Below, one piece after another: positions 7,974 through 52,787 of a stretch of 64,000 nt of DNA. The stretch lies in the NCBI GenBank assembly GCA_012798115.1, contig JAAZNV010000006.1, positions 19,232-83,231 on the forward strand, read 5' to 3'. This stretch comes from a candidate division WWE3 bacterium. GTDB taxonomy: Bacteria > Patescibacteriota > WWE3 > UBA101185 > UBA10185. The position numbers and the translations under genes were made by a program. The notes beneath the pieces are model-generated. The model had not been told where the DNA came from. It did not search any database and saw only the letters and a program-made list of their open reading frames with translations. Numbering within the stretch: position 1 is the first letter of the stretch; each line of letters begins with the position of its first letter.

Positions 7974-9189
7974 ATCTTAATGCTTCAATAGGTTGTAGCT
8001 TTGAAGCCTTATATGCTGGATACCAACCAAATATGATTCCAATCAAGCATGAAACTACAACAGACAACACTATTGATTGATATGATATTGCTGTTGGCAA
8101 GGACATTGCCTTTGTTATGATGGTAGATGCACCAACTCCAATAAGCACCCCAAGCATCCCTCCTGTAATTGTTAGAACTACAGCTTCGGTAAGGAACTGT
8201 GTTATTATGGTCCTGCTCTTTGCACCTAGAGACATTCTCAGCCCTATCTCCATAGTTCTTTCAGTTACTGTTACAAGCATAATATTCATGATTCCTATTC
8301 CTCCCACAATAAGAGAAATAGCTGCTATTCCTGTGAGAAGTGTTGTGAAAGTACTAGTTACTTCAGTTGCCGTCTCGAGAATGTCTGCTTGAGATGAGAC
8401 TGTAAAATCTGCGTCCGAAGGAGTAGCTTTATTATGAAGTTCTAGCAAGAGAAATCCCAATTGATTTTGTGCTGCTTCCATAAGATCATCATTCTTAGCA
8501 GTTACATAAATAGTACTAATGTAATCAACCCCAAATAGTACTTTTTGAGCAGTTTGAAGAGGAACGTATGCAATATCATCAGAATTTCCAACTCCAGAAC
8601 TTCCTTTTGATTTAGTAACACCTACTACAGTGAAAGAAGTACCATTTATTCTAATACTCTTACCGATTGGATTCACATTTGTACCAAATAAATCTTCCAC
8701 GACCGTTGGTCCAAGCACTACAACTTTTTCCATATTTTGATTTTGTTGTTCTGTAATAGGAGAACCTACTGTCAAGGTAATGTTTCTACTATCAAAATAT
8801 TCACCTGTTACACCAGATACTTGTATGTTTGTGTTATTTCTTCCATATACAAGCTGAGTTCTTGAACTGTACTCTGCAGCTACTTTTTGTATTGTGTTTA
8901 TTCTTTGAGATGCCTCTATAGCTTTGGCGTCAGAGTATTTTAATGTTGTATTTCCTGAAGCCGATCCACGTAAGAAGCCACTTCTTTGGGCACCTGGTCT
9001 AACAATTAATAGATTTGACCCTAGTGATTGAATTCTGTTTTTAACACTCTGTTGACTTGCTTGACCGAGTGTCATAAGGGTGATTACTGATCCAATACCT
9101 ATAATAATTCCTAGAGCAGATAGTGCTGTCCTCATACCGTTTGTTTTTAGTACTGATATACTTTCTTCAAATATTTCAATTAATCTCAT
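7966..9189 (-). CDS. ABC transporter permease, MacB/FtsX family.
   Basis: N-terminal TM, large periplasmic domain, C-terminal FtsX-like four-TM bundle; overlaps the ATPase gene. Confidence 0.85.
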   Translation of the reverse strand: MRLIEIFEESISVLKTNGMRTALSALGIIIGIGSVITLMTLGQASQQSVKNRIQSLGSNLLIVRPGAQRSGFLRGSASGNTTLKYSDAKAIEASQRINTIQKVAAEYSSRTQLVYGRNNTNIQVSGVTGEYFDSRNITLTVGSPITEQQNQNMEKVVVLGPTVVEDLFGTNVNPIGKSIRINGTSFTVVGVTKSKGSSGVGNSDDIAYVPLQTAQKVLFGVDYISTIYVTAKNDDLMEAAQNQLGFLLLELHNKATPSDADFTVSSQADILETATEVTSTFTTLLTGIAAISLIVGGIGIMNIMLVTVTERTMEIGLRMSLGAKSRTIITQFLTEAVVLTITGGMLGVLIGVGASTIITKAMSLPTAISYQSIVLSVVVSCLIGIIFGWYPAYKASKLQPIEALRYE

Positions 9190-13715: not shown

Positions 13716-14231
13716 TCAGCAAGAAAGTATAAGATTTGAAGTTAATATAGCTGGTGCATTCTTTTTATATATTAAATCTTTTCCACCTCCTAGATTGTAC
13801 AGATCTTCCCTTCCAGCTATTTTGTACCTATGCTTAAGAAGAAAGAACTTGATGGCATAATTAACAGATTTGGCATCGCAAAGTATAATTTTTGATTTAA
13901 ACTCCTTTGAGCCTTCTATCTCTGTGTTTCTCAGTAAGAAGCTAGCCAAGTATCTACCTCTAAATTCTGGTCTAACAGTTAGGTTTTTAATTTCAAGAGC
14001 ATCTGAATACGTTTTATGTTTTTGGTAAATAGATACTCCAACAATATTCCCTGAAGATATGGCGATTAATGCTCTTTTACTTTCTTTATGAAGTTCTTTG
14101 TAAGATTTATCAGCCCAATCAAGAAAATCTGGGTAATCTGTATTAGGGATCCATAACCTAGGTCCAAGAATAAAGTTTACAATTTCATCCAGTTTAGAGG
14201 CTGGATACTCATTTGTAAATCTATAATCCAT
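13716..14231 (-). CDS. GNAT-like acetyltransferase (tentative).
   Basis: LEIKNLTVRPEFRGRYLASFLL resembles the GNAT motif A Q/RxxGxG/A-like segment; otherwise unrecognised. Confidence 0.4.
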   Translation of the reverse strand: MDYRFTNEYPASKLDEIVNFILGPRLWIPNTDYPDFLDWADKSYKELHKESKRALIAISSGNIVGVSIYQKHKTYSDALEIKNLTVRPEFRGRYLASFLLRNTEIEGSKEFKSKIILCDAKSVNYAIKFFLLKHRYKIAGREDLYNLGGGKDLIYKKNAPAILTSNLILSC

Positions 14232-14297
14232 AATTAGAAATTATTTTAGCATAAGATATTTAAGATTGATTTATGTTGCTACAAAGACAAGATAATT

Positions 14298-14340
14298 GGC
14301 TGAGCATGCTGGTCAGGAGCGTCTGCGTCTACTTTCCCAG
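14298..14340. repeat. Intergenic repeat copy R1 (GGCTGAGCATGCTGGTCAGG...CTACTTTCCCAG).
   Basis: Shares the GGCTRAGCATGYYGGT core with the copies at 14954 and 15572, and the CTA-TT-CCCAG 3' end with R3. Confidence 0.55.
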
Positions 14341-14910
14341 GTCAGGATAATTTACATCAAATCCTTTTAAATACTCCCCATGAAAAGAACTTTTTATATC
14401 TTCATACTTAATATCTTTGTAATTTTTAAAACTGCCAGAATAATATAAATACAATATTTGCATGAAGAAGCTATGGGTAACACAAAGCATATTATTGTAG
14501 CTGAGACCTTTTAGATATTTATCTAGCTCCTTTATTCTTTCCCAGGTATCTTTTAGAGTACTAAGTTCGGTGCCATCGATGAATCTATTAATTCGTTCCC
14601 CTGGTAAATCTGGATTCCAGGCACATTCCTCTAAAAGTTCACATGTCTCTATTTTTATGTTGAGATTGAATACTTTTTTAACCTCGTTGGCGCTTTCTAA
14701 AGTGCGTTTTGAGGGACTACTTATGATCACATCAAATTGCTTGTATGCATCTAGGTCTAATTCGTTTGTAATGTAGTTTTTAACGTCACTATTTATAGAT
14801 GGATCAATAAGTCCTTTGGATAGGTTTACATATTGCTCATGATCTGTGTTTTCTTTGGAATCAAACGGGTATGCTAATCTGTAATGTCTGATAAATGTAA
14901 CCACTTTCAC
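14329..14910 (-). CDS. Histidine phosphatase superfamily protein (phosphoglycerate mutase-like), tentative.
   Basis: N-terminal VTFIRHYRL (RHG-like) and C-terminal CVTHSFF segment. Confidence 0.45.
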   Translation of the reverse strand: MKVVTFIRHYRLAYPFDSKENTDHEQYVNLSKGLIDPSINSDVKNYITNELDLDAYKQFDVIISSPSKRTLESANEVKKVFNLNIKIETCELLEECAWNPDLPGERINRFIDGTELSTLKDTWERIKELDKYLKGLSYNNMLCVTHSFFMQILYLYYSGSFKNYKDIKYEDIKSSFHGEYLKGFDVNYPDLGK

Positions 14911-14953
14911 ACACGAATTATATTATCCCGTGAGCCCTTTCTCAAGGTTACAT

Positions 14954-14993
14954 GGCTAAGCATGTCGGTTTAGAACGCATGGGACTATTACAC
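14954..14993. repeat. Intergenic repeat copy R2 (GGCTAAGCATGTCGGTTTAGAACGCATGGG...).
   Basis: Aligns to R3 over about 35 nt, with the upstream GTGAGCCCTTTCT / GTGTGCCCATTCT also shared. Confidence 0.55.
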
Positions 14994-15067
14994 AAGAATC
15001 AGATTAATTTTAATGTTTTTCTGTATGCGAGCTTGACATTACATTAAATTATGTGTAGATTGAGGCA

Positions 15068-15427
15068 ATGAATGATGAAGGCTTAAAACAAGAACCAGAT
15101 TTAACCGAAGTCGTGAAAGATCTCTTGGATGCAGGCCATCGGGATGAGGTCGTTTCTGCCATCACCCAATTATATAACCAGTCTGAAGCAGGTATGATAC
15201 CTGGTGACTTTGACTCACTTGTAAGAACAAACCTAGAGAAGGTTGAAAAATCATTAGCTGACAACCCTGATGTAGATCTAAAAGATGAATTTACTGGATT
15301 TGTGGAGGATCTTACACGAGTAGCTGGTATGAACTCTTATCATGGTATAACACCCCCGTCCCATATTATGCAAGAAGCCATTGTGGATATGTTAAAAAAC
15401 ATGGATAAAGGAGAGGTTGTGAGTTAG
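15068..15427 (+). CDS. Acidic hypothetical protein (119 aa), flanked by repeat copies R2 and R3.
   Basis: ORF with locally higher GC than its neighbours; no motif recognised. Confidence 0.4.
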   Translation: MNDEGLKQEPDLTEVVKDLLDAGHRDEVVSAITQLYNQSEAGMIPGDFDSLVRTNLEKVEKSLADNPDVDLKDEFTGFVEDLTRVAGMNSYHGITPPSHIMQEAIVDMLKNMDKGEVVS

Positions 15428-15571
15428 TTTTCATCTGTCTTTACGCCTGTTTACGTGTATTATTTTCCATGTGTCATCGCTCTAATCATAGGTAGTTTAG
15501 GTTCGATCAAGGAGTATCTACTAGCCTTGAAAGAGTATTTGAGGCTTCGTGATCACTTGTGTGCCCATTCT

Positions 15572-15624
15572 GGCTGAGCATGTCGGTCTAACACCCATTT
15601 CATTCTCTAGGCTCTAATTCCCAG
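15572..15624. repeat. Intergenic repeat copy R3 (GGCTGAGCATGTCGGTCTAACACCC...CTAATTCCCAG).
   Basis: Third copy of the family; overlaps the last codons of the convergent gene. Confidence 0.55.
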
Positions 15625-16063
15625 ATAATTGAGCATACTTGTCTAGAGCCCTTAATCGTTTTAGTTCTTTTCTCACTTTACTTTTGAGAGTTTGGTATCT
15701 TTCAAGAATTTTATACTCACAAGCACTCTTTGAATTTAGAATCTCATCTTTTGTTTTATACTCATATATATTAAATTTTGTAGGTTTTTTAAACTGACAT
15801 CTGCTGAAATCTTGATTCGTTCCATCTGGAAGTACATTCCAAACATGAAAGTTATTTTTATCGTAAGCTAGTTTCCCCCCAAATAAGTCATACACAATTA
15901 AAGCAGTGGGTACACATTGTCCCAAGGCTTTGTCAACTCTAGTCCATTTATTAGCTAAATTGGGAAATACTGTATTGTTTGACCATGTGTCTTTAAATAT
16001 AGATTCGAGCTCATCAAATTGTTCTTTAGAAAGAAGATTTGAGTTTTGATATAAGTTCAACAT
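15614..16063 (-). CDS. Hypothetical protein (149 aa), co-operonic with the UDG-like gene.
   Basis: 7-nt overlap with the upstream ORF; no motif recognised. Confidence 0.4.
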   Translation of the reverse strand: MLNLYQNSNLLSKEQFDELESIFKDTWSNNTVFPNLANKWTRVDKALGQCVPTALIVYDLFGGKLAYDKNNFHVWNVLPDGTNQDFSRCQFKKPTKFNIYEYKTKDEILNSKSACEYKILERYQTLKSKVRKELKRLRALDKYAQLSGN

Positions 16064-16617
16064 AAGAGGTCTCTCAGTTGCTTAGCTAATTTATTAAATA
16101 TTTCTATGTTTTTCTGATGATTATATGGCCCAATTGGTGAGGGATGATATATAGGAAGGAATTGATACATACTTTCGGACAGAGATGCCTCAGTAATGAC
16201 TCCTATTTCCAAGTTTAAGTTGGAATTTTTATTGAATATTTCCAAAGTTTTTACGCCTAATAAAATAATAAATCTGATATTATTTGCTTTTAGTTGTTTT
16301 AGGAAGATAGGCCAACACTTAGATCCACAAACATCCAGTTGCTTCCGTTTTTTATCTACATAGCATTTGACCAATTCTGTAAATGAACAGTCATCAATGT
16401 TTAGTTGATAGGGTTCGAATAATTTATTTAAATTTTTACCAGTGGGCAAAAGCTTTCCGTTTATCGTATAGAATGCTTTACCAGATTTTCTCCAACCATT
16501 AGGTGCAGGAGATTCCCCAACTAAGAGAATATGCTTTCCTCTGGTGTTACCTAACTTGAAAAACTTTGTTATTGGGTAAGTGTCCGTATTTTCACAGTAA
16601 TGTTCTTGTTCATCCAT
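16057..16617 (-). CDS. Uracil-DNA glycosylase superfamily protein (family 4/5-like), tentative.
   Basis: LLVGESPAPNGW (GE[GS]PG-like motif A) and IYHPSPIGPYN (HPSP motif B), with several Cys. Confidence 0.5.
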   Translation of the reverse strand: MDEQEHYCENTDTYPITKFFKLGNTRGKHILLVGESPAPNGWRKSGKAFYTINGKLLPTGKNLNKLFEPYQLNIDDCSFTELVKCYVDKKRKQLDVCGSKCWPIFLKQLKANNIRFIILLGVKTLEIFNKNSNLNLEIGVITEASLSESMYQFLPIYHPSPIGPYNHQKNIEIFNKLAKQLRDLLC

Positions 16618-16709
16618 ACGCCAATTATATATGATTATATATTATGGAACTTATAGTGGCTGATTGATTTAATAACAATCCTATCCATATGAGTACTCTC
16701 CGGGCTACT

Positions 16710-16783
16710 TGGCTGGGGGACAGGGACTTGAACCCCAATTATTGCATCCAGAGTGCAACGTCCTACCATTAGACGATCCCCCA
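16710..16783 (-). tRNA. tRNA-Gln (anticodon CUG).
   Basis: Manual cloverleaf: U1-A72 acceptor stem (as in bacterial tRNA-Gln), D arm TCGTCTAATGGTAGGAC, anticodon loop CTCTGGA, T arm with TTCAAGT loop, encoded CCA. Confidence 0.8.
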
Positions 16784-26838: not shown

Positions 26839-26866
26839 GCCACAGTTTTCCTGTGGCTTTTTATAA
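26839..26866 (+). terminator. Second terminator-like hairpin GCCACAG-ttttc-CTGTGGC followed by TTTTT, ending 5 nt before ATG 26871.
   Basis: Seen in the sequence; argues the real start is ATG 26871 rather than the track GTG at 26853. Confidence 0.35.
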
Positions 26867-26870
26867 ATTT

Positions 26871-29800
26871 ATGAAAAAAATAAAAATAAAGATCCACAGT
26901 GAAAAACTGTTTTCGTATGTTGCTATGTTTTCTATGGTTGCAAATGTGTTATCTCCATTTGCAGCTGTGCTTCCTTCCACTGCTTATGCAGAAGGTTCTT
27001 CTACTACAGAAACTACTCAGCAAGTAGAGGAAGAATCTAAAGAAGAAGTTAAACCTGAGGAAGAAGCCCCTGCAGAAGAACCAGAAGGAACGGTAGAACA
27101 AATAGAAGAGCAGAGTACTGAAAAAGAAAGCACCGAAGAAACCCAAGAACCTGTACAAGAAGAAACTGCTGAGCCAAAAGTTTCAGTAGAGTCTTCAAAT
27201 GAAATACCAGAAGGTAAATTTACAATAGATTCAGTAGAGAGTCCTATAACAGAACCTGAAGTCGTAGAAGTTATAACTCCTGCTGAACCGGTAGTTGAAG
27301 AACCAGCAATGGTAGAAGAACAGACAGGAGATATACTTCCTGATGGAGTCTCTGACTACAGACCAGAGATAGAGATTGAAGAAGGTGAAGCTACAGAGGT
27401 TCAGGAAGTTGTAGATCCTGTTTCAACAGAAACTAGTAGTACAGAGCCGGAAGTAGTTATTACAGAGCCTAGTGAAACTGAACCAGCAGTAACTGTTGAA
27501 CCAATTACTCCAACTGAAACTGGAGAAACTCCTAAAGAAGTAATTAAAGAATATGAGACGTTAGCAGATGGAGCAGAAGTAAAAGATAGTACAAAAGAAG
27601 ATTGGGATATTGATGGGGAAAAAGCTGAAACGAGGGAAGTAGTTAAACTTGGTATTAAATATATTTTCCCTATAGATAGTGAGGATAATGAAGTTAGTGT
27701 TACATTTACTAAACTTCCAAAATTAAGTGAAGATAAATCTACTTTAATAATAGAAAGAGTAAAAGTATCAGATCTTGATTTACCTGAAGATTTTAAAACT
27801 GATGCAGAATATGCATTTGATATTACTACTCCAGATATGAATGATGGAGAATTTGAATATAATTTAACTCTTCCTAAACCTGAAGGTGTGGACGCAGAAG
27901 TTGCATATATAGAAAAATCAATAAATGAGGCTAAAGATGAAGTTAAGAGTGAAGATGTAAAAAAGGTTGAAGAAGATAAAATTGATCAGGACGGCGGAAG
28001 CATAAAAGTAGAAAGTTTAGATCACTTGACCTTATTTATTCCTCTTGGTGGTGTAGTTCTTAGTGTATCTGGTAGTTTTGATGGCGCAACACAGGTTACT
28101 GTGGAACCTGGGACTGCTATTGAAGTTGATATTACAGTAGAGCGTAGTGATGGTTGGGATTGGTGGAGTAATGATGTTGAAAATGATTGGAAAGCTACTT
28201 CTTGGAAAATAAATGATGGCTCTTGGAATTGTGAGAATCACAGTGATCATACATGGGGTAATGGGACAGACACAGGTTCCTTCAATATTACAGCTCCTCT
28301 GGCAGAAGGTACGTACGACGTCAGTTTCAGGGCACATAGAAGTAATTCATGCGAAGACACTGGTGTTAGTAATACATTTACGTTAACAAATGGAATTAAG
28401 GTTGAAAGTTACTCTGCTCCAAGTCCAACACTTCATTATAATGTTAACGATGATTATGTTTTAACATCTGTTTCAGGAGTCTGGACAGATGTAAATGGTG
28501 GTAGTGAAGTAACTGGCGAGGGAACTAATGAAGTTAGGTGGGGACGTAGCGCAGAATATGGCAAGAAGAGTGGATTAAGATTTGATGGCAGTGATCAACA
28601 AAGTTTTAATGAAGGAAGTAGTTTTTATCTTGGAGCATTAACGCACTTTAACTGGCCAATTACCAATGCTTCACGTGGAGCCACTCTTAAGATCACTTTG
28701 CATTTTTCTAAACCTGGTATAAGTCCAGATCCAGATTTTAGTTATGACTTTAATATAGAAGAAACTTCTAACAGCTATGGTCATTGTCTTTCTTGGCAGC
28801 AAAGTTCAACTCCTTGTGATGACAAGATAACATTTCCATCTAGTTATGGTGAAAAGAGTTTTACAATAGGAGATAAACTTTATACTCTAAAAATATTAGG
28901 ATTTGTTAACTCCTATCCAGGAGGTTCTCCTGTTTCTCAGTTTATTACAGAAGAACAAAAGAATAACACAGCTTATTTAGTTGGTACCCTTTCATCTGTT
29001 CTTGTTCCTGCTCCTCAAATAACCCTAGTTGAGAAAGCAATTAATGGTAATGATGCTGATTCGTCTCCTGGAGATAGCTTATATGTTGGAGATGCAGTAA
29101 CATTTACCTATCAAGTTCAAAATACAGGTAATGTTGATTTAACTAATATAGTTATTCATGATAACGACTCAAGTTTATCTGTTACTTGTCCTTCTACGTC
29201 TTTAACTTCTGGGTCTTCTATGACCTGTACAGCAACAAGTACCGTTAAGCTAGGGAATTATCACAATACTGCTTATGTAACAGCAAAGCATGGTTCTCAG
29301 TCTTTAAGGAGTAGTGATGAAGAAGGATATTATGTTGGTGTAAATAGAATAATTTGTGGCGATGGTATAAAAGATGTTTCGGAAGCATGTGATAACGGTC
29401 CTGATAATGGAGATGTTTGTACGGCTCCTTATGATGGGGATTGTAATTATTGTGGTGTAAGTTGTGAGATTATAACAGTGAGAGGGCCCTACTGTGGAGA
29501 TGGAACTAAGAATGGGTCGTCAGAACAGTGTGATGGTCTAGACTTGGGTAATCTACCATCTTCAGATTTTTCTTGTACTAAAAAATGTGAACTTAATTTA
29601 ATTCAAGATAAAGTAACTATTTGTCATGCTGACGCTTCTGGACATAAACCATATACCATCAATAAGCCAAATAAATCTGCTGATGTAAATGGACACGATG
29701 GGCATAATGGACCTATTTGGTTCCTAGGTATAACAGGCGATTGGGGAGATATAATTCCTCCATTTTATTACGTTGGGGGTTATTACGTCGGAAAAAACTG

Positions 29801-32800
29801 GACGCCTGAAGGTGAAGCAATTTGGAGGAACGGTTGTGATGTTCCACCATACTGTGGTGATGGGGTTATAAATCAGCCTACAGAACAATGTGATGATGCT
29901 AACTCTGTAAATAATGATGGGTGTAGTGCCACGTGCCAGCTTGAAACTGGAACAATTACAATTATTAAGGATGCACAACCTGATGATAGTCAAACATTTA
30001 ACTTTACATATGAGAGTAATCCTTATGCTATCGGTAATTTCAGCTTAACAGATAATGGAGGTGGCAATGAAAAGATAAGTTTTGCGTCTATTCCAATAGG
30101 GTCATACTCTTGGACTGAGGATCTAGTTACAGATTGGCGCTTGGATAGCATTGCATGTGATGATAGCAATAGCGTTGGGGACTTATCAGCAAGAAGAGTT
30201 GATGTTGTGTTAGATGCTAATGAACATGTAACTTGCATCTTTACTAATGTGTTGAAGACTGGGACAATCTCAGGAGTCAAATTTGAAGACATAAACGGCA
30301 ATCGTGTCCAGGACAGTAATGAACATGGACTATCTGGTTGGACAATATATATTGATAGCAATAAGAATAATCAATTGGATGCTGGTGAACCTACTCAGGT
30401 TACTGATGTAAATGGAAACTTTGTTTTCAATGGCTTAACTCCTGGAAAATACTGGGTGAAGGAAATTAATCAAACTGGTTGGAGTCAAACAGTGCCAGCA
30501 GGGCTATACCAGGAAGTTGATCTGAAAGCTGATGAAAATGAGTCTATATATTTTGGAAATCAAAGGAATCCAGTAACTATAAATGCATATAAAGTAGTTT
30601 GTGATAATGAGTCTTACTTACCAAATTATGGTATTGGTGGACCAGACATTACTTCTACAACAGCACAAGATTGGGTAAGTAACAGCAATGGACATTGTAA
30701 GCTTGAACCTAACTGGAAGTTCCAGTGGAGTTTTGATGGTGTAGATAATCCTGGAGATAATATAACCAGTGAAGCAGGAACAGGTTGGAATACTTTTGGT
30801 CCAACTGATGGTGATGGTTTTGCACAAGTTAAGATCTATCAGCTTGATACGCCTAAGCTTTGGTTTAGAGAAGTACTTCAAGATGGTTATATTCCATTTA
30901 CATATGGAGCACACCCCGATAATTCAGATAATGTAAGTGCTGAGTTTTACTGCAATGATGATGTTTTTAACTACGATAACTGGGAATGGATAGATAACCC
31001 GCAATACGGAAATACTTACTACTGTGTTGCATGGAACACACTAAAGAAGGGATCTTTAGAAGTAACAAAGACTGTAAACTGGACAGAAATTATTCCTGAT
31101 GTGTCAAAGACTTTTGAAGTATGTATAACAGGTCCTTCTTACACATCTGGAAACTGCAAGACGATAGATTATGATGGTGGAACTTTAACGTGGAATGATT
31201 TATTGCTGGGTGATTACACAATAACAGAATCTGATCTTGGTGCACATTGGTCAGTTGTTGGTTCTGGATCTGTAGTTTCAGTATCTGATTCCTCTACGAC
31301 ACATCAAATAACTAATACATACATCCCATACTGTGGCGATGGAGTTAAGAATGGAGCAGAGCAATGTGATGGGAGAAGTGGAGTTAATGAAGATATGGAG
31401 TTTTGTACTAGCCAGTGTAAGCTAGTTCCAGTTTACGATGGTAATCATGAGTGTCCAAAAGGAACAATTGAAAAATATATTACCGGAATTACTTTAGGTA
31501 GCCAAAGTAGTTCTTTGCAAACACTTAATTTATCAGGTGGGAGATCTTATCTTCTAAAAGCTTTTGGAACTTACCAATATGGTAGTGGTTCTACAAGAAA
31601 AGCTGACCCAGCTTATGGATCTGAGGATAATTTTGCTACCTGGAGACCTGATATAGGAATTTGGGGTGTAAACAACAGAGGTGTTACTTCAATTCTAGGA
31701 AATCTAGGACGTGGGATGGGTGTAATTGAATGGGATAACGATAAAAATATTGATGAAGATCACATTTATGAAAAGTTAATTAAGCCTGAAAGTGACTTGG
31801 AAGCAAAGTTTGTTATTAGCGACTGGTACAGCAATTGGTATGGAAACAGCTGTGATAATCAAGGTTGTATGACTGATAATAATGGCTCGTTGAATGTAGA
31901 TTTGTATGAATGTGTTGAACCAAGTTCAATTCAAGGAAAGAAATTCAAAGATGTTAATGGCAATGGGATAAGAGACAGTGGTGATACGTACCTTGATGGT
32001 TGGACAGTAAATCTGTATCAACAAAAAGAAGGGTGGAGTTTAGTAAAAAGCATGATAACAGGCAATGATTTAACTGAAGCTGGATCAGTAGATCAAGGTC
32101 AATACAGATTTGTTAATCTTCTTCCTGGAAAGTATTTAGTTTGTGAGGAACTTAAGTCTGGTTGGGTGCAAACAGCACCAGTTGAAGGGACTTCTTATAA
32201 CGGTACTACTTGTTACGAAATAGACCTAGCAGCTGGAAAAAGTGAGGTTGGAAAAGTGTTTGGTAACTTTGAATTAGGAAAAGTTCAAGGTATGAAGTTT
32301 AATGATCTAGATGGGGATGGAAACTCACATGAAACTGGTGAAGAATATTTAAATGGTTGGACAATTAGATTATATAAAGATTGGGCAGAACCAGTTGAAG
32401 TTATAACTTCAAATACAGGAACTTTAGGGCAATATAAATTCGAGAATTTAAAGCCAGGAACTTATCAGGTTTGTGAGGTTTTACAACAAGGATGGGTACA
32501 GACATGGCCAAGTGCTGGGGATATTCCAGTTGGAGACAATGGAGTTACACACCCCAACTATGGAACTGCTGTTATTAATTCATCTAGTGCTTTAGATGAG
32601 GGTGCAAATTGCTGGCAAACAGTAGTTTCCGCATCGGGTCAATTCAATCAGCTGTTAAGGTTTGGGAACTCAAATCTTGGATCAATTCATGGTATGAAGT
32701 ATATAGATACTTCTGGTGATGGGAACTTTGATAGCGGAACCGATTGGGGTGCTTCTGGTTGGACAATAAATTTGTATAAACTAGTTAATAGCACGTATGT

Positions 32801-34994
32801 TCTTGCAAGTTCGGTATCAACTGATTCAAATGGATATTATTCATTTGCAAATCTCGAGCAAGGAACATACAAGTTGGAAGAAGTTCAACAATCTGGTTAT
32901 CAAATTATAAATCCATCTGCAGGAATTTATGAAGGAATTATTTTAAATCCTGGAGATAATTTAACGAATTATAACTTTGGTAATTTCCAGAACGGGAGTG
33001 TGTACGGTTGCAAGTACAACGACTTAGACGGTGATGGTGTTAGAAATAGAGAAATTGAACCTCAAATGGCAGGTGTAACAATGAACTTATATGATTCTTC
33101 ATGGAATTTAGTAGCATCAACAGCTACATCTGAAGGCTCTGGATATGGTAATAATTACTCGTTTAGTAATCTTCTTGGAAAGGGTACTTATTACGTTTGT
33201 GAAGTAATGTGGAAAGGTTGGGCACAAACTGAACCTAACGCGGAAAATGGTGTACTAAATGTATCACCAAATGCAGAAAATGAAGGTTCTTACTGCAGAA
33301 AGATAGAAAATAACTACTCTGGTGGTGGTTATGCAAGTCAAAGGTTTGGTAATGTTTTTGTAAATCCAAAACTTCAAATCTCAAAGAGTAATGATGCATC
33401 TTCTGCAAAGAAGATTGGAGATATTGTTACATTTACCATAAAGGTAAAAGTATTAGACTTCAAGCTTGATAATGTAACAGTTCTAGATCTTCTTCCAAAA
33501 GGATTCATATTCCAAGATGAGGATTGGGGAGTAACCTCCAGCAACCCATTGTTTAGTTTCACAGGAGATCCTCATTATGCCTCTCCTGGGACATGGAAGT
33601 TAGGGAGTCTACAGAAAGATGAAGAAGTTACTATTACATATGAGGCTAAAGTTGGATCAGATGTAGACCCTGGTGTTTATAAAGATTTGGCTTGGACTTC
33701 TGGGGATGATATTTTAGGTAGTAATGTCTTAGGCTTGGCTCAAGATGGTAAGGTAAATGATTATTTTGTAGGTACAGAAGTTGAAGTAACAAAGGACAAG
33801 GATTCTACTAAAGATACAGTTGATGTGAAAGAAACAGAAGAAGAGGAAGAGAAAGAAGAAGTGTTGGGTGCTTCTGATGTAAGATTACCTGCTACAGGAG
33901 CTAGCACAGCTATACTAGATGTAGTTTTAATAGCTGGTTTAGTGGGAGCCTTACTTATGATAATTGGAGGTATAGGAAAAATGTTAAAAGCTAAAAAGAA
34001 AAAGGATAAAAACTCAAGACTTAAAAAAGCGTTGTTAACAATGCTTATGTTAAGTTTTAGTTTGATACTTACTAGTAAAGTGTATGCAGAGTCAGACTCT
34101 AAACTAGTTGCTAGAATAGAAGATCCTAAATCTCCTGCTATATCATCGTTCAGCTTAAGCTTTGTTGTTCTTGATGCAAATGAAACACCAAGAAGTATTG
34201 AAGCTCAATGCTGGAAGAAAGGCCCGCTTGATTTAGACTTTGTTAAGTTTGCAGATCCTAGCGTTGATGGTGTGGGTGGAAACACAAATAATTGTTTGGT
34301 TGATAATTCAGTATTAACAAAATCAGGGACATATGTGTTTAAAGTTAAGGTTAAGGCTGATAGCGGTGATTGGCAAGATTCAATAAACACAGCCGCTGTT
34401 GTGTTTGATAATGATGGACCTGATAAACCGAAATATATAGAAAAAGATAAGAAGTCTGATTGCAAATATGAGATAACGCTAAAAACAGCAGATGATGATC
34501 AAACATCTTATATAGAAGTGTATAAAGATGATGATAAAGAAATGAATCTTCATTCTGGTAACTTGATTAAGACTAAGACAATAGGACCTGATGAAAAATA
34601 TGAATTTACGTATGAAGTTTATAGCAGTGATTGTGCAAAAACATGGTATTTTGCTGTAATTGCATTTGATGATTCTGGTAATGCATCGGATCCTAGAGCT
34701 GAAGAAGTAGTTACAAAGGTTACAGTAACAAAAACTACTAAAACGGAAGAAGTGCTTGGGGCGCTTGAAGTTCCTGGTGGAGCAAACCTTTCGCAGGAAG
34801 GTGAAGGAGCAAACAAGGAAGTACCTACTAAGACTAGTGAAGAATCAAAAGGTGCAGTTCTTGGAGAAAAAACTCAAGAACAAGGATTTGTGCTAAGGGT
34901 AGTTAAGTCTTTATGGTTTTGGTTAATAATTGTTCTTCTTGTGTATATCATTGTACGTGTTGTTAAAAAGAAACAAAATAAAAAGAAAAGGTAA
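26871..34994 (+). CDS. Giant modular cell-surface protein (about 2707 aa) with an internal LPATG sorting signal and an in-frame C-terminal module.
   Basis: Signal peptide, acidic E/T/P-rich spacer, at least three CGDG...CDDGN Myxococcus-type Cys-rich repeats, five SdrD-B/Cna-B-like repeats (GxKFxDxNGNG...GWTIxLY...PGxYxVxE), a DUF11-like repeat, then LPATG, TM and KAKKKKDK tail. Confidence 0.85.
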   Translation: MKKIKIKIHSEKLFSYVAMFSMVANVLSPFAAVLPSTAYAEGSSTTETTQQVEEESKEEVKPEEEAPAEEPEGTVEQIEEQSTEKESTEETQEPVQEETAEPKVSVESSNEIPEGKFTIDSVESPITEPEVVEVITPAEPVVEEPAMVEEQTGDILPDGVSDYRPEIEIEEGEATEVQEVVDPVSTETSSTEPEVVITEPSETEPAVTVEPITPTETGETPKEVIKEYETLADGAEVKDSTKEDWDIDGEKAETREVVKLGIKYIFPIDSEDNEVSVTFTKLPKLSEDKSTLIIERVKVSDLDLPEDFKTDAEYAFDITTPDMNDGEFEYNLTLPKPEGVDAEVAYIEKSINEAKDEVKSEDVKKVEEDKIDQDGGSIKVESLDHLTLFIPLGGVVLSVSGSFDGATQVTVEPGTAIEVDITVERSDGWDWWSNDVENDWKATSWKINDGSWNCENHSDHTWGNGTDTGSFNITAPLAEGTYDVSFRAHRSNSCEDTGVSNTFTLTNGIKVESYSAPSPTLHYNVNDDYVLTSVSGVWTDVNGGSEVTGEGTNEVRWGRSAEYGKKSGLRFDGSDQQSFNEGSSFYLGALTHFNWPITNASRGATLKITLHFSKPGISPDPDFSYDFNIEETSNSYGHCLSWQQSSTPCDDKITFPSSYGEKSFTIGDKLYTLKILGFVNSYPGGSPVSQFITEEQKNNTAYLVGTLSSVLVPAPQITLVEKAINGNDADSSPGDSLYVGDAVTFTYQVQNTGNVDLTNIVIHDNDSSLSVTCPSTSLTSGSSMTCTATSTVKLGNYHNTAYVTAKHGSQSLRSSDEEGYYVGVNRIICGDGIKDVSEACDNGPDNGDVCTAPYDGDCNYCGVSCEIITVRGPYCGDGTKNGSSEQCDGLDLGNLPSSDFSCTKKCELNLIQDKVTICHADASGHKPYTINKPNKSADVNGHDGHNGPIWFLGITGDWGDIIPPFYYVGGYYVGKNWTPEGEAIWRNGCDVPPYCGDGVINQPTEQCDDANSVNNDGCSATCQLETGTITIIKDAQPDDSQTFNFTYESNPYAIGNFSLTDNGGGNEKISFASIPIGSYSWTEDLVTDWRLDSIACDDSNSVGDLSARRVDVVLDANEHVTCIFTNVLKTGTISGVKFEDINGNRVQDSNEHGLSGWTIYIDSNKNNQLDAGEPTQVTDVNGNFVFNGLTPGKYWVKEINQTGWSQTVPAGLYQEVDLKADENESIYFGNQRNPVTINAYKVVCDNESYLPNYGIGGPDITSTTAQDWVSNSNGHCKLEPNWKFQWSFDGVDNPGDNITSEAGTGWNTFGPTDGDGFAQVKIYQLDTPKLWFREVLQDGYIPFTYGAHPDNSDNVSAEFYCNDDVFNYDNWEWIDNPQYGNTYYCVAWNTLKKGSLEVTKTVNWTEIIPDVSKTFEVCITGPSYTSGNCKTIDYDGGTLTWNDLLLGDYTITESDLGAHWSVVGSGSVVSVSDSSTTHQITNTYIPYCGDGVKNGAEQCDGRSGVNEDMEFCTSQCKLVPVYDGNHECPKGTIEKYITGITLGSQSSSLQTLNLSGGRSYLLKAFGTYQYGSGSTRKADPAYGSEDNFATWRPDIGIWGVNNRGVTSILGNLGRGMGVIEWDNDKNIDEDHIYEKLIKPESDLEAKFVISDWYSNWYGNSCDNQGCMTDNNGSLNVDLYECVEPSSIQGKKFKDVNGNGIRDSGDTYLDGWTVNLYQQKEGWSLVKSMITGNDLTEAGSVDQGQYRFVNLLPGKYLVCEELKSGWVQTAPVEGTSYNGTTCYEIDLAAGKSEVGKVFGNFELGKVQGMKFNDLDGDGNSHETGEEYLNGWTIRLYKDWAEPVEVITSNTGTLGQYKFENLKPGTYQVCEVLQQGWVQTWPSAGDIPVGDNGVTHPNYGTAVINSSSALDEGANCWQTVVSASGQFNQLLRFGNSNLGSIHGMKYIDTSGDGNFDSGTDWGASGWTINLYKLVNSTYVLASSVSTDSNGYYSFANLEQGTYKLEEVQQSGYQIINPSAGIYEGIILNPGDNLTNYNFGNFQNGSVYGCKYNDLDGDGVRNREIEPQMAGVTMNLYDSSWNLVASTATSEGSGYGNNYSFSNLLGKGTYYVCEVMWKGWAQTEPNAENGVLNVSPNAENEGSYCRKIENNYSGGGYASQRFGNVFVNPKLQISKSNDASSAKKIGDIVTFTIKVKVLDFKLDNVTVLDLLPKGFIFQDEDWGVTSSNPLFSFTGDPHYASPGTWKLGSLQKDEEVTITYEAKVGSDVDPGVYKDLAWTSGDDILGSNVLGLAQDGKVNDYFVGTEVEVTKDKDSTKDTVDVKETEEEEEKEEVLGASDVRLPATGASTAILDVVLIAGLVGALLMIIGGIGKMLKAKKKKDKNSRLKKALLTMLMLSFSLILTSKVYAESDSKLVARIEDPKSPAISSFSLSFVVLDANETPRSIEAQCWKKGPLDLDFVKFADPSVDGVGGNTNNCLVDNSVLTKSGTYVFKVKVKADSGDWQDSINTAAVVFDNDGPDKPKYIEKDKKSDCKYEITLKTADDDQTSYIEVYKDDDKEMNLHSGNLIKTKTIGPDEKYEFTYEVYSSDCAKTWYFAVIAFDDSGNASDPRAEEVVTKVTVTKTTKTEEVLGALEVPGGANLSQEGEGANKEVPTKTSEESKGAVLGEKTQEQGFVLRVVKSLWFWLIIVLLVYIIVRVVKKKQNKKKR
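30258..33240 (+). repeat. Region encoding five divergent SdrD-B-like (Cna-B type) beta-sandwich repeats, interleaved with other domains, inside the giant CDS.
   Basis: Repeating protein pattern (I/V)xG(V/M)K(F/Y)xDxNG(N/D)G...GL(S/D)GWT(I/V)xLY...GxYxFxNLxPGxYxVxE...GWxQTxP, seen five times. Confidence 0.6.
33885..33899 (+). other. LPATG sortase recognition motif codons (followed by a hydrophobic segment 33900-33980 and a basic tail), internal to the giant ORF.
   Basis: TTA CCT GCT ACA GGA read directly; downstream ASTAILDVVLIAGLVGALLMIIGGIG then KMLKAKKKKDK. Confidence 0.75.
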
Positions 34995-51968: not shown

Positions 51969-52787
51969 TTATTTCTTCCATCCACACTTGCTAATGGTTT
52001 CTATACACCCACATGTGTAGCCAAGGTTAGATGGGAAGTTTTCAACGATATCACATGTAGTTATGGCATCTTCATACTTTTCTGGTTCATTTGTACACAT
52101 TCCATGTCCACCTCCACAACCTTCTCCTGCCCAAATGCATTCTGAGTCGGTTGTACAAGTTCCTTCAGAGTATTCAATAGTATAAGCTGGAAGTTCTGTG
52201 TCTTCTGGTTTGTACCATTTTGCACTTCTTGTTCCTTCACCGGAATGAATCCAATTATCTGGAGTTCCAGGTTTCTTTTGATCAAGACTTCCCCAATACC
52301 ACCCTTGTGTTAGTTCTTGTTCAGTTATGTTTGATGTAGTGTCTTCAACTTCTTGTGATGCTTGTGATCTAAAGTATTCCCATTCTTCGTATTCTTCTTC
52401 ATTAATTTTGCATACTCCATATTGGTCCCCTGTTTCTTCATTTGTTTTTATTTCAATTGTTCCACCCATGCATACGCAAAAAGAAGATGCAGGGTTGGTC
52501 ATGCATACTTGACCTTCTTCACATTCAACGTTTGTAACTTGATCATAACATTCTTCAATTTTTAATATGTCAGAGGTTGTGGAATCATATACCATTTCAG
52601 GTGTATACCAATTGTTGTTTTGTTCTTTGGTTGTTTTGTATTCAAGATATGCATACGATAAAACAATTATTGTTATAGAAGTGATGAGGCTAATTTTTAA
52701 CCACTTAGGTATGTTTTTTAAAGGTGTAAGGAAATGTTTTTGTAGTTTTGTTTTTATTTGTTTATCTTGTTTAAGTCTTTCTTCCAT
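51969..52787 (-). CDS. Membrane-anchored Cys-rich secreted protein with a DUF333-like (putative hemolysin) module plus a C-terminal Cys-rich domain.
   Basis: ...NPASSFCVCMGGTIEIKTNEETGDQYGVCKINEEEYEEWEYFR resembles DUF333; C-terminal CTTDSECIWAGEGCGGGHGMC...CGCIETISKCGWKK. Confidence 0.45.
   Translation of the reverse strand: MEERLKQDKQIKTKLQKHFLTPLKNIPKWLKISLITSITIIVLSYAYLEYKTTKEQNNNWYTPEMVYDSTTSDILKIEECYDQVTNVECEEGQVCMTNPASSFCVCMGGTIEIKTNEETGDQYGVCKINEEEYEEWEYFRSQASQEVEDTTSNITEQELTQGWYWGSLDQKKPGTPDNWIHSGEGTRSAKWYKPEDTELPAYTIEYSEGTCTTDSECIWAGEGCGGGHGMCTNEPEKYEDAITTCDIVENFPSNLGYTCGCIETISKCGWKK

Follow-up and report, generated by a model that had tools for sequence, protein, structure and literature searches.

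Three 25-nt repeats beside tRNA-Gln in a WWE3 genome: probable attachment-site junctions of serial integrations by a large serine recombinase family

A 64,000-nt stretch from a candidate division WWE3 bacterium (assembly GCA_012798115.1, contig JAAZNV010000006.1, positions 19,232 to 83,231; hereafter the window) contains three copies of a short intergenic repeat, R1, R2 and R3, downstream of a tRNA-Gln gene. The repeat is a 25-nt unit, here called X. One of its strands resembles a tRNA-Gln 3' end; the other encodes the C-terminal codons and stop of a large serine recombinase (LSR). R1, R2 and R3 are probably attachment-site (att) junctions of serial integrations at the tRNA-Gln 3' end by an LSR family that occurs across the candidate phyla radiation (CPR, or Patescibacteria). 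The cassettes between such junctions mostly lack an integrase. An initial annotation, made from the letters of the window, had seen three direct repeats delimiting single-gene cassettes, and had proposed either a small element like repetitive extragenic palindromes (REP) or miniature inverted-repeat transposable elements (MITE), or a recombination site marking gene cassettes in a stretch that ends at tRNA-Gln. The latter proposal was supported by co-oriented arrays downstream of tRNA-Gln, by X being an integrase 3' end and by block boundaries at the CAGCCA edge. The tRNA mimicry and the coding origin of X had not been seen.

The 25-nt repeat and its association with tRNA-Gln

The 16-nt core GGCTRAGCATGYYGGT matched the window exactly at 14298, 14954 and 15572 only, each time on the plus strand. 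When up to three mismatches were allowed, five matches were found against 1.0 expected, and none of 100 shuffled sequences reached five, confirming the three same-orientation repeats. Two far matches with three mismatches (8228-8243 and 52007-52022, both on the minus strand) were within the number expected by chance. In register, the repeat was a 25-nt unit with the consensus TGGCTGAGCATGYCGGTCWRGAACC; its copies began at 14297, 14953 and 15571 (plus strand), and the 64 kb held no other. Of the further blocks that had been thought common to the copies, GGT(T/C)TA(G)AAC belonged to this unit, whereas GTG(A/T)GCCC(T/A)TTCT and CTA-TT-CCCAG were out of register. The distance of the former to the core is 11 nt greater in R2 than it is in R3, and that of the latter is 16 nt in R1 as against 27 nt in R3. 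CTA-TT-CCCAG overlapped the stop and last codons of two minus-strand genes (a histidine-phosphatase-family gene, His_Phos, ending ...LGK and stop, and a YunG-family gene, ending ...SGN and stop), and its sharing is therefore probably coincidence. Neither flank of R1 could be assigned to a recognizable family. A rise in divergence with distance from the tRNA was suggested by the window copies (2, 3 and about 5 differences) but was rejected, as the pattern was absent in the X loci L189, L269 and L213.

Scanning genomes with a 20-nt form of the core returned at least 117 loci, the high-GC matches being unrelated coding sequence. About 45 low-GC loci among the genome matches listed were all from Patescibacteria and had a common longer consensus, TGGCTGAGCATGYCGGTCWRGAACC; the lineages among these listed matches included Saccharibacteria, WWE3, Microgenomates, Woesebacteria, Gottesmanbacteria and others. 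A metagenome scan with the 25-mer gave 68 further loci. Altogether, exact-pattern scans recovered at least 144 copies of X (118 distinct) from more than 100 CPR contigs (43 CPR genome loci and 68 metagenome loci), many of them short metagenome contigs and some representing the same genome in two collections. For chance similarity of three short segments, nothing speaks beyond the short length of the repeat; the shuffles and 144 further copies with identical boundaries already refute it, leaving a practically negligible probability.

Information content was high over exactly 25 positions and fell to about zero immediately on either side. X formed co-oriented arrays on several contigs. Adjacent copies were a median of 1.3 kb apart (lower quartile 0.65 kb; 35 intervals); a single open reading frame (ORF) occupied 18 of the 35 intervals and was co-oriented with the site in 14 of these 18. 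A scan of viral contigs with a 17-mer gave 93 matches, none with the extended CPR consensus. The largest group, about 60 of the 93, came from small viral contigs and belonged to one conserved phage gene family (IMG/VR L002-L093, e.g., L002 1262-1278) with the core in frame as ...HTGETMLAEHVGRAVAV...; the flanks in this family are unrelated to X, and its match to the core is coincidental. Separately, a tandem motif, AAATGAGACAAATGAGACAGTATAAAAA, comprising two to three copies of GAGACA(A/G)(A/T), was seen 20-75 nt from X in different CPR lineages (L113 at about 1845-1875, L205 at about 1390-1440, and also L133, L194, L175, L159, L178 and L142) and was absent from the window; it could represent accessory protein-binding sites or a promoter.

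ARAGORN found 38 tRNA genes in 719 kb of X loci, and 29 of them were tRNA-Gln (CTG or TTG anticodon; 20 distinct 3' ends). For 28 of the 29, X copies lay 0.2-10 kb downstream and were oriented like the tRNA 3' end, an arrangement to which the window conforms. The tRNA-strand sequence of X, GGTTCYWGACCGRCATGCTCAGCCA, was identical at 15-18 of 25 positions to the terminal 25 nt of tRNA-Gln genes (GGTTC.A..CC ... CAGCCA), ungapped and with a common CAGCCA end; the 3' end of the window tRNA-Gln, GGTTCAAGTCCCTGTCCCCCAGCCA, matched at 16. Between X and each resident tRNA-Gln there were 7-10 differences over the 25 positions, and X was better conserved than the tRNAs. Its acceptor strand, ATGCTCA, matched no resident tRNA-Gln and its "T-loop" was non-canonical, indicating that X is a mimic and not a displaced host tRNA end. 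A local duplication of the tRNA-Gln 3' end was likewise rejected, the resident sequence differing from X at 9 of 25 positions.

Integrase codons in the repeat and recombination junctions

When ORFs from 112 loci were clustered by sequence similarity, the sole recurrent recombinase family was an LSR. The intact member P0004 (NMB91230.1, WWE3, 526 aa) ends ...ERSAWLSMSV, and its last six codons plus stop are X in frame. R3 reads in the same way on the plus strand of X: TGG CTG AGC ATG TCG GTC TAA, that is, W L S M S V stop. P0004 carries the Pfam domains Resolvase (PF00239) and Recombinase (PF07508), its N-terminus starts MKKALIFCRVSSREQ, and it is 25-27% identical to annotated phage integrases from Firmicutes (E down to 2e-46). 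It is probably encoded by the same metagenome-assembled genome (MAG) as the window, on another contig of 12.3 kb, because its accession number neighbours those of window proteins (NMB91347-91349). An LSR pseudogene in locus L189 ends ...ATC TGG CTG AGC ATG TAG (...S I W L S M stop), inside X; it looks chimeric, with an N-terminal part from a family of about 430 aa (up to 95% identity) and a C-terminal part of the P0004 type (54%). An LSR gene is expected to encode these two domains and a catalytic serine near the N-terminus; through P0004 and this pseudogene, such a gene is physically linked to the att site. A homologue search with L189:6142-7047 returned more than 3000 CPR proteins in the 430-aa LSR family without the X ending.

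Within the upstream extension of R3, positions 15511-15590 showed 90% identity to L177, a syntenic WWE3 locus, and the extension was also conserved in Saccharibacteria and Woesebacteria loci. It translates in the integrase frame, with same-frame counterparts in L177 (...SLESLFEASWSLACPFWLSMSV and stop) and L189 (...GVFESTHSIWLSM and stop), showing that R3 carries a decayed integrase-gene stump. The stump was recognized only via alignment to L177 and L112 and in-frame translation; tblastn of P0004 against the window gave no significant match, the stump being too short. A frame ending GGC TGA (...HLCAHSG and stop) was considered for this module and rejected, as it was lost in L146 and L194 and the TGG CTG frame fits real integrase C-termini. 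An X variant with CAGG reads on as WLSMPVRNLF(G/V/A)LC(S/T), which accounts for the conserved tail ttttcggtctttgttc beside many copies.

Hybrid junctions were found on both sides of the predicted exchange. In the attL-type junction of L100, L168 and L226, an LSR C-terminal remnant of 146 codons (...AKVRGHTR continuing as WLGEEDSNPR and stop) ran directly into an antisense tRNA-Gln, its W-L codons being the CAGCCA of the tRNA. A related integrase fragment, P0123 in L281, likewise read into a tRNA-like 3' end on which ARAGORN made no call. The reciprocal attR side was represented by the flanks and by a moved block. At least five flank families occurred at an equal offset 3' of CAGCCA after real tRNA-Gln as well as after X, and 21 tRNA-flank/X-flank pairs scored 14 or more, compared with none of 4205 shuffled pairs. 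Type b, the family to which the R2 flank weakly belongs, also follows the real tRNA-Gln in L189, where the series runs tRNA-Gln with b, a uracil-DNA glycosylase (UDG) superfamily gene, X' with b, a gene, X with b, a gene, and X with the integrase. A one-gene unit encoding a 98-aa membrane protein was 98.9% identical over 472 nt in L259 (1176-1647) and L231 (1214-1685), and the DNA outside was unrelated. This block started at the TGGCTG of X and ended at the TGGCTGGGG of tRNA-Gln in L259 or of a tRNA-like end in L231; it was thus bounded by CAGCCA at both sides and held no integrase. Taken together, the attL junctions, the common flanks, the L189 series and the 472-nt block indicate that the exchange point is at or near CAGCCA and that integrase-less units moved as modules.

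Several further features of these loci were recorded. The same element of about 57% GC (tRNA-Gln, LSR remnant, glyoxalase-like gene, X) recurs in L100, L168 and L226, whose contigs had been assigned to Nitrospirae and to Armatimonadota; this reflects either mis-binning or occurrence outside the CPR. In L281 (2323-2615, minus strand), tRNA-like 5' and 3' halves are about 190 nt apart, possibly through an intron or insertion, and the abutting LSR gene reads ...TLRPIWLPRQDSNLG into the 3' half. L231 (1686-1760, minus strand) has, upstream of the 98-aa cassette, a degenerate tRNA-Gln-like sequence on which ARAGORN made no call; its 3' end, AGTTCGAATCCCCCATCCCCAGCCA, is of the genuine type, and a TTA anticodon loop may be present.

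Proposed mechanism, alternative explanations and related systems

Canonical LSR attP and attB sites are about 40-50 bp long and consist of two related half-sites around a central dinucleotide. In the proposed mechanism, an LSR-encoding element would carry a site made of X and the integrase 3' end, X being the element-borne half-site, and the chromosomal partner would be the T-loop-to-CCA end of tRNA-Gln that X mimics. The LSR would recombine the element site with the tRNA-Gln 3' end at the common CAGCCA; the crossover would fall at, or within about 10 nt 3' of, this motif. The tRNA would stay intact, while X and the old downstream DNA would move to the distal border of the insert. Repeated insertion, or recombination between existing sites, would then give a series of tRNA-Gln, segment, X, segment, X and so on, and loss of integrase genes would leave cassettes in which X and a short entry arm are retained. 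The window array, now without an integrase, would need an enzyme in trans, such as P0004, for further movement. In standard LSR systems, attL and attR do not serve as targets for integration. Tandem growth may nevertheless be compatible with LSR site rules, and R1-R3 may still be usable.

Several points weigh against serial LSR integration. Tandem growth needs relaxed site choice, or cycles of excision and re-integration. The conserved side of the site is the 25-nt X/tRNA part only, the opposite side falling into several unrelated families. No recombinase gene is present in the window, which has only the stump of about 95 nt at 15500-15591, and none was found within about 8 kb for most X copies searched. 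Intact integrases ending in X are rare in databases (P0004 plus fragments), the same-MAG origin of P0004 draws only on the neighbouring accession numbers, and all related loci were retrieved through the X match itself. Finally, the UDG gene is inverted in L189 relative to the window, and the simple insertion model leaves this unexplained.

The lack of an integrase in the array and the in-frame stops of the R3 stump would also fit inert scars, that is, ancient integrations with decayed integrases in which X was kept by chance and the cassettes are deletion leftovers. R1 and R2, at 3-5 positions off the consensus, and the unrecognizable flanks of R1 point the same way. By contrast, X is near-invariant across CPR phyla where its flanks are unconserved, half of the X-X intervals hold exactly one ORF with tight boundaries, and the integrase-less unit that is nearly identical in two contexts and bounded by CAGCCA argues for recent movement. 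We regard inert scars as possible, though rather unlikely; they overlap with serial LSR integration as a sub-case. A classical tRNA-gene island, in which a tyrosine integrase would leave displaced host tRNA-Gln 3' ends as repeats, is the commonest known pattern beside a tRNA 3' end (PMC4383910), and the co-oriented, tRNA-like repeats of the array agree with it. However, the mismatches of X to every resident tRNA-Gln, its unmatched ATGCTCA, its conservation above that of the tRNAs, and the recurrence of just one recombinase family, an LSR with X at the end of its ORF, make such an island improbable. No tyrosine-recombinase family recurred in the ORF clustering of the 112 loci, a screen that was not exhaustive, with Pfam run on 8 window ORFs only.

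That X is a dispersed repeat of the REP/MITE kind, or an RNA element acting at gene 3' ends as a terminator or cis-regulator, is distinctly improbable. In 31 of the 44 copies with a downstream ORF, an opposite-strand gene did end close to X, its stop codon being no more than about 125 nt away. Its folding, however, was no better than that of shuffled sequence (z -0.8 to +1.4), consensus folds contained no compensatory pair on either strand, and hairpins, terminal inverted repeats, target-site duplications and a U-tract were all absent. The copies had one orientation and clustered by tRNA-Gln, with no dispersed copies in the window. In an Rfam search of the window and 10 related loci, only tRNAs reached the threshold, and nothing appeared at the repeats even at E ≤ 10. 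The REP/MITE-like identity proposed by the initial annotation was thus not supported, and the conserved secondary structure that it had suggested looking for was not found. Its argument that a single promoter or operator role is unlikely holds. Integron arrays with attC sites would account for the spacing of about 0.6-1.3 kb and for ORFs that are mostly single and in most cases co-oriented. X lacks the imperfect palindrome RYYYAAC...GTTRRRY and a foldable bottom strand (by inspection, GTTRRRY was present in only 1 of 3 copies), and it is conserved in sequence whereas attC is conserved in structure. Neither an intI-type tyrosine recombinase nor an attI/Pc platform was found among the window ORFs examined or the related loci, and membership in the integrons is very improbable. 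A sigma-54 promoter, an extracytoplasmic function (ECF) sigma promoter, an integron attC and a dif/Xer site were also tried by eye and rejected on spacing and consensus.

With serial LSR integration as the preferred explanation, the closest mechanistic analogue is the SCC/ECC group, the cassette chromosomes of staphylococci and Enterococcus, but with a tRNA as the target. In SCC, the repeats copy the end of the target gene, and cassettes without ccr are found in tandem. In SCC/ECC, CcrAB LSRs insert at the rlmH 3' end, direct repeats of about 50 nt flank the elements, and remnants persist by the target (PMC6222049). The X system likewise combines an LSR, the 3' end of one conserved housekeeping gene, direct repeats and remnants beside the target; its repeats resemble the target 3' end and delimit tandem units, some without a recombinase. 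It differs in that the target is tRNA-Gln and not rlmH, so that the rlmH/Ccr definition does not apply, in that X doubles as the last codons and stop of the integrase, in that a cassette is often just one gene of about 0.6 kb, and in its CPR hosts.

In genomic pattern, the closest counterparts are tRNA-gene islands and tycheposon islands. Islander-type tRNA/tmRNA islands and the tycheposon islands of Prochlorococcus contain partial tRNAs between stacked, degenerate elements (PMC4383910; 10.1101/2020.12.28.424599). Insertion at an intact tRNA 3' end, border repeats like partial tRNAs and elements piled beside the tRNA are common to them and the X system. Those islands, however, use tyrosine recombinases and true tRNA copies, whereas the X system has a serine recombinase and a conserved mimic; by the Islander test, the resident tRNA-Gln was intact but the distal repeats were mimics (15-18 of 25) and not true fragments.

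P0004 has the Resolvase plus Recombinase architecture of phage large serine integrases (phiC31, Bxb1, TP901-1 and A118 type). In phages with such enzymes, attP directly adjoins int, and attB x attP recombination yields hybrid attL and attR; known phage LSRs mostly target protein-coding genes, and their attP and attB have few bases in common. X, by contrast, has about 16 of 25 bases in common with the tRNA end, provides one conserved half-site and forms tandem arrays. As in integron arrays, there is a fixed chromosomal platform with short, mostly one-gene and mostly co-oriented units that each end in a site, and the recombinase lies outside the units. The resemblance is one of layout only and not of membership, as IntI, attI/Pc and structured attC are missing and the enzyme class is different. 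A full-text literature search (by sequence and by combinations of CPR, tRNA-Gln and serine recombinase) found no description of the system, with incomplete coverage.

CPR bacteria make up a large share of bacterial diversity and have tiny genomes; to our knowledge, descriptions of mobile-element systems in them are very few. Tentatively, the CPR may carry a serine-recombinase counterpart of the integron, with the tRNA-Gln 3' end as a fixed docking site. A cassette of this kind, if the conjecture holds, would consist of an entry arm of about 30-45 nt, usually one gene and the 25-nt tRNA-mimic X, and would be excised as a circle and re-inserted by an LSR in trans. If true, this would mean a cross-phylum pool of single-gene cassettes in organisms with genomes of about 1 Mb, and one 25-nt site common to WWE3, Saccharibacteria, Microgenomates, Woesebacteria and others would offer a concrete, testable route of gene flow. 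It would also be an unusual serine-integrase system in its tRNA target, in a site formed by the C-terminal codons of the enzyme and in its tandem cassette arrays, and could be a source of new integrases whose target is defined and highly conserved. X bounds variable segments of one to a few genes beside tRNA-Gln, making it a simple marker for accessory-gene hotspots in CPR assemblies.

Gene content of the window array

The layout of the initial annotation, with His_Phos between R1 and R2, the 119-aa ORF between R2 and R3 and tRNA-Gln beyond, was correct (Table 1). A third segment next to the tRNA, UDG plus YunG, had been missed. From the tRNA outward on the minus strand, the order is tRNA-Gln with a b-like flank, UDG and YunG, R3 (X, arm and integrase stump), the 119-aa ORF, R2 (X and a weak b flank), His_Phos, R1 (X only) and the GNAT gene.

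Table 1. Features of the tRNA-Gln array in the window (window coordinates; str., strand)
Feature	Position	Str.	Remarks
GNAT gene	13716-14231	-	Distal to R1
R1 (X copy)	14297-14321	+	TGGCTGAGCATGCTGGTCAGGAGCG; most diverged, about 5 differences from consensus
His_Phos gene, cassette R2-R1	14329-14910	-	Histidine-phosphatase family; stop codon 7 nt from R1
Promoter-like site for His_Phos	14945->14917	-	Sigma-70-like, TTGAGA-17-TATAAT, near consensus; -35 hexamer inside R2 flank
R2 flank, weakly type b	14925-14952	+	Minus strand reads tgtaaccttgagaaagggctcacgggat; similarity score 13, borderline
R2 (X copy)	14953-14977	+	TGGCTAAGCATGTCGGTTTAGAACG; TAAG replaces TGAG; 3 differences from consensus
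Promoter-like site for 119-aa ORF	15033-15061	+	Sigma-70-like, TTGACA-17-TAGATT, near consensus
Acidic 119-aa ORF, cassette R3-R2	15068-15427	+	Reverse orientation
LSR 3' remnant (type A module), about 95 nt	15500-15591	+	In-frame stops; ...SLERVFEAS (stop) SLVCPFWLSMSV (stop)
R3 (X copy)	15571-15595	+	TGGCTGAGCATGTCGGTCTAACACC; 2 differences from consensus
Conserved arm adjoining X (R3)	15594-15613	+	cccatttcattctctaggct; beside X in loci of several CPR lineages
YunG-family gene	15614-16063	-	tRNA-proximal segment; ends 18 nt before R3
UDG-superfamily gene	16057-16617	-	tRNA-proximal segment (whole segment 15614-16617)
Sequence directly 3' of tRNA-Gln	16676-16709	-	agtagcccggagagtactcatatggataggattg; resembles type-b flank after X copies; score 14 vs X flank in L239
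tRNA-Gln(CTG), array anchor	16710-16783	-	3' end GGTTCAAGTCCCTGTCCCCCAGCCA points toward R3, R2, R1

The window was syntenic with L177 and L189 from tRNA-Gln onward, and the backbone common to the three is tRNA-Glu, a 599-aa gene, an NYN gene and tRNA-Gln. The three loci differed in gene content from the tRNA to the first X: L177 has a nucleotidyltransferase-like gene in place of the UDG and YunG segment, and L189 has UDG alone. The UDG gene is 62% identical in amino acids (tblastx) between L189 (3927-4487) and the window (16057-16617), and is co-directional with the tRNA in the window and convergent in L189.

A homology search with the 119-aa ORF returned no homologue other than itself. The two promoter-like sites diverge from the R2 region. 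Because the His_Phos site falls within the flank following X, a cassette may obtain the promoter of its gene from the entry arm. Elsewhere in the window, a single ORF of 2713 aa occupies 26853-34994 on the plus strand.

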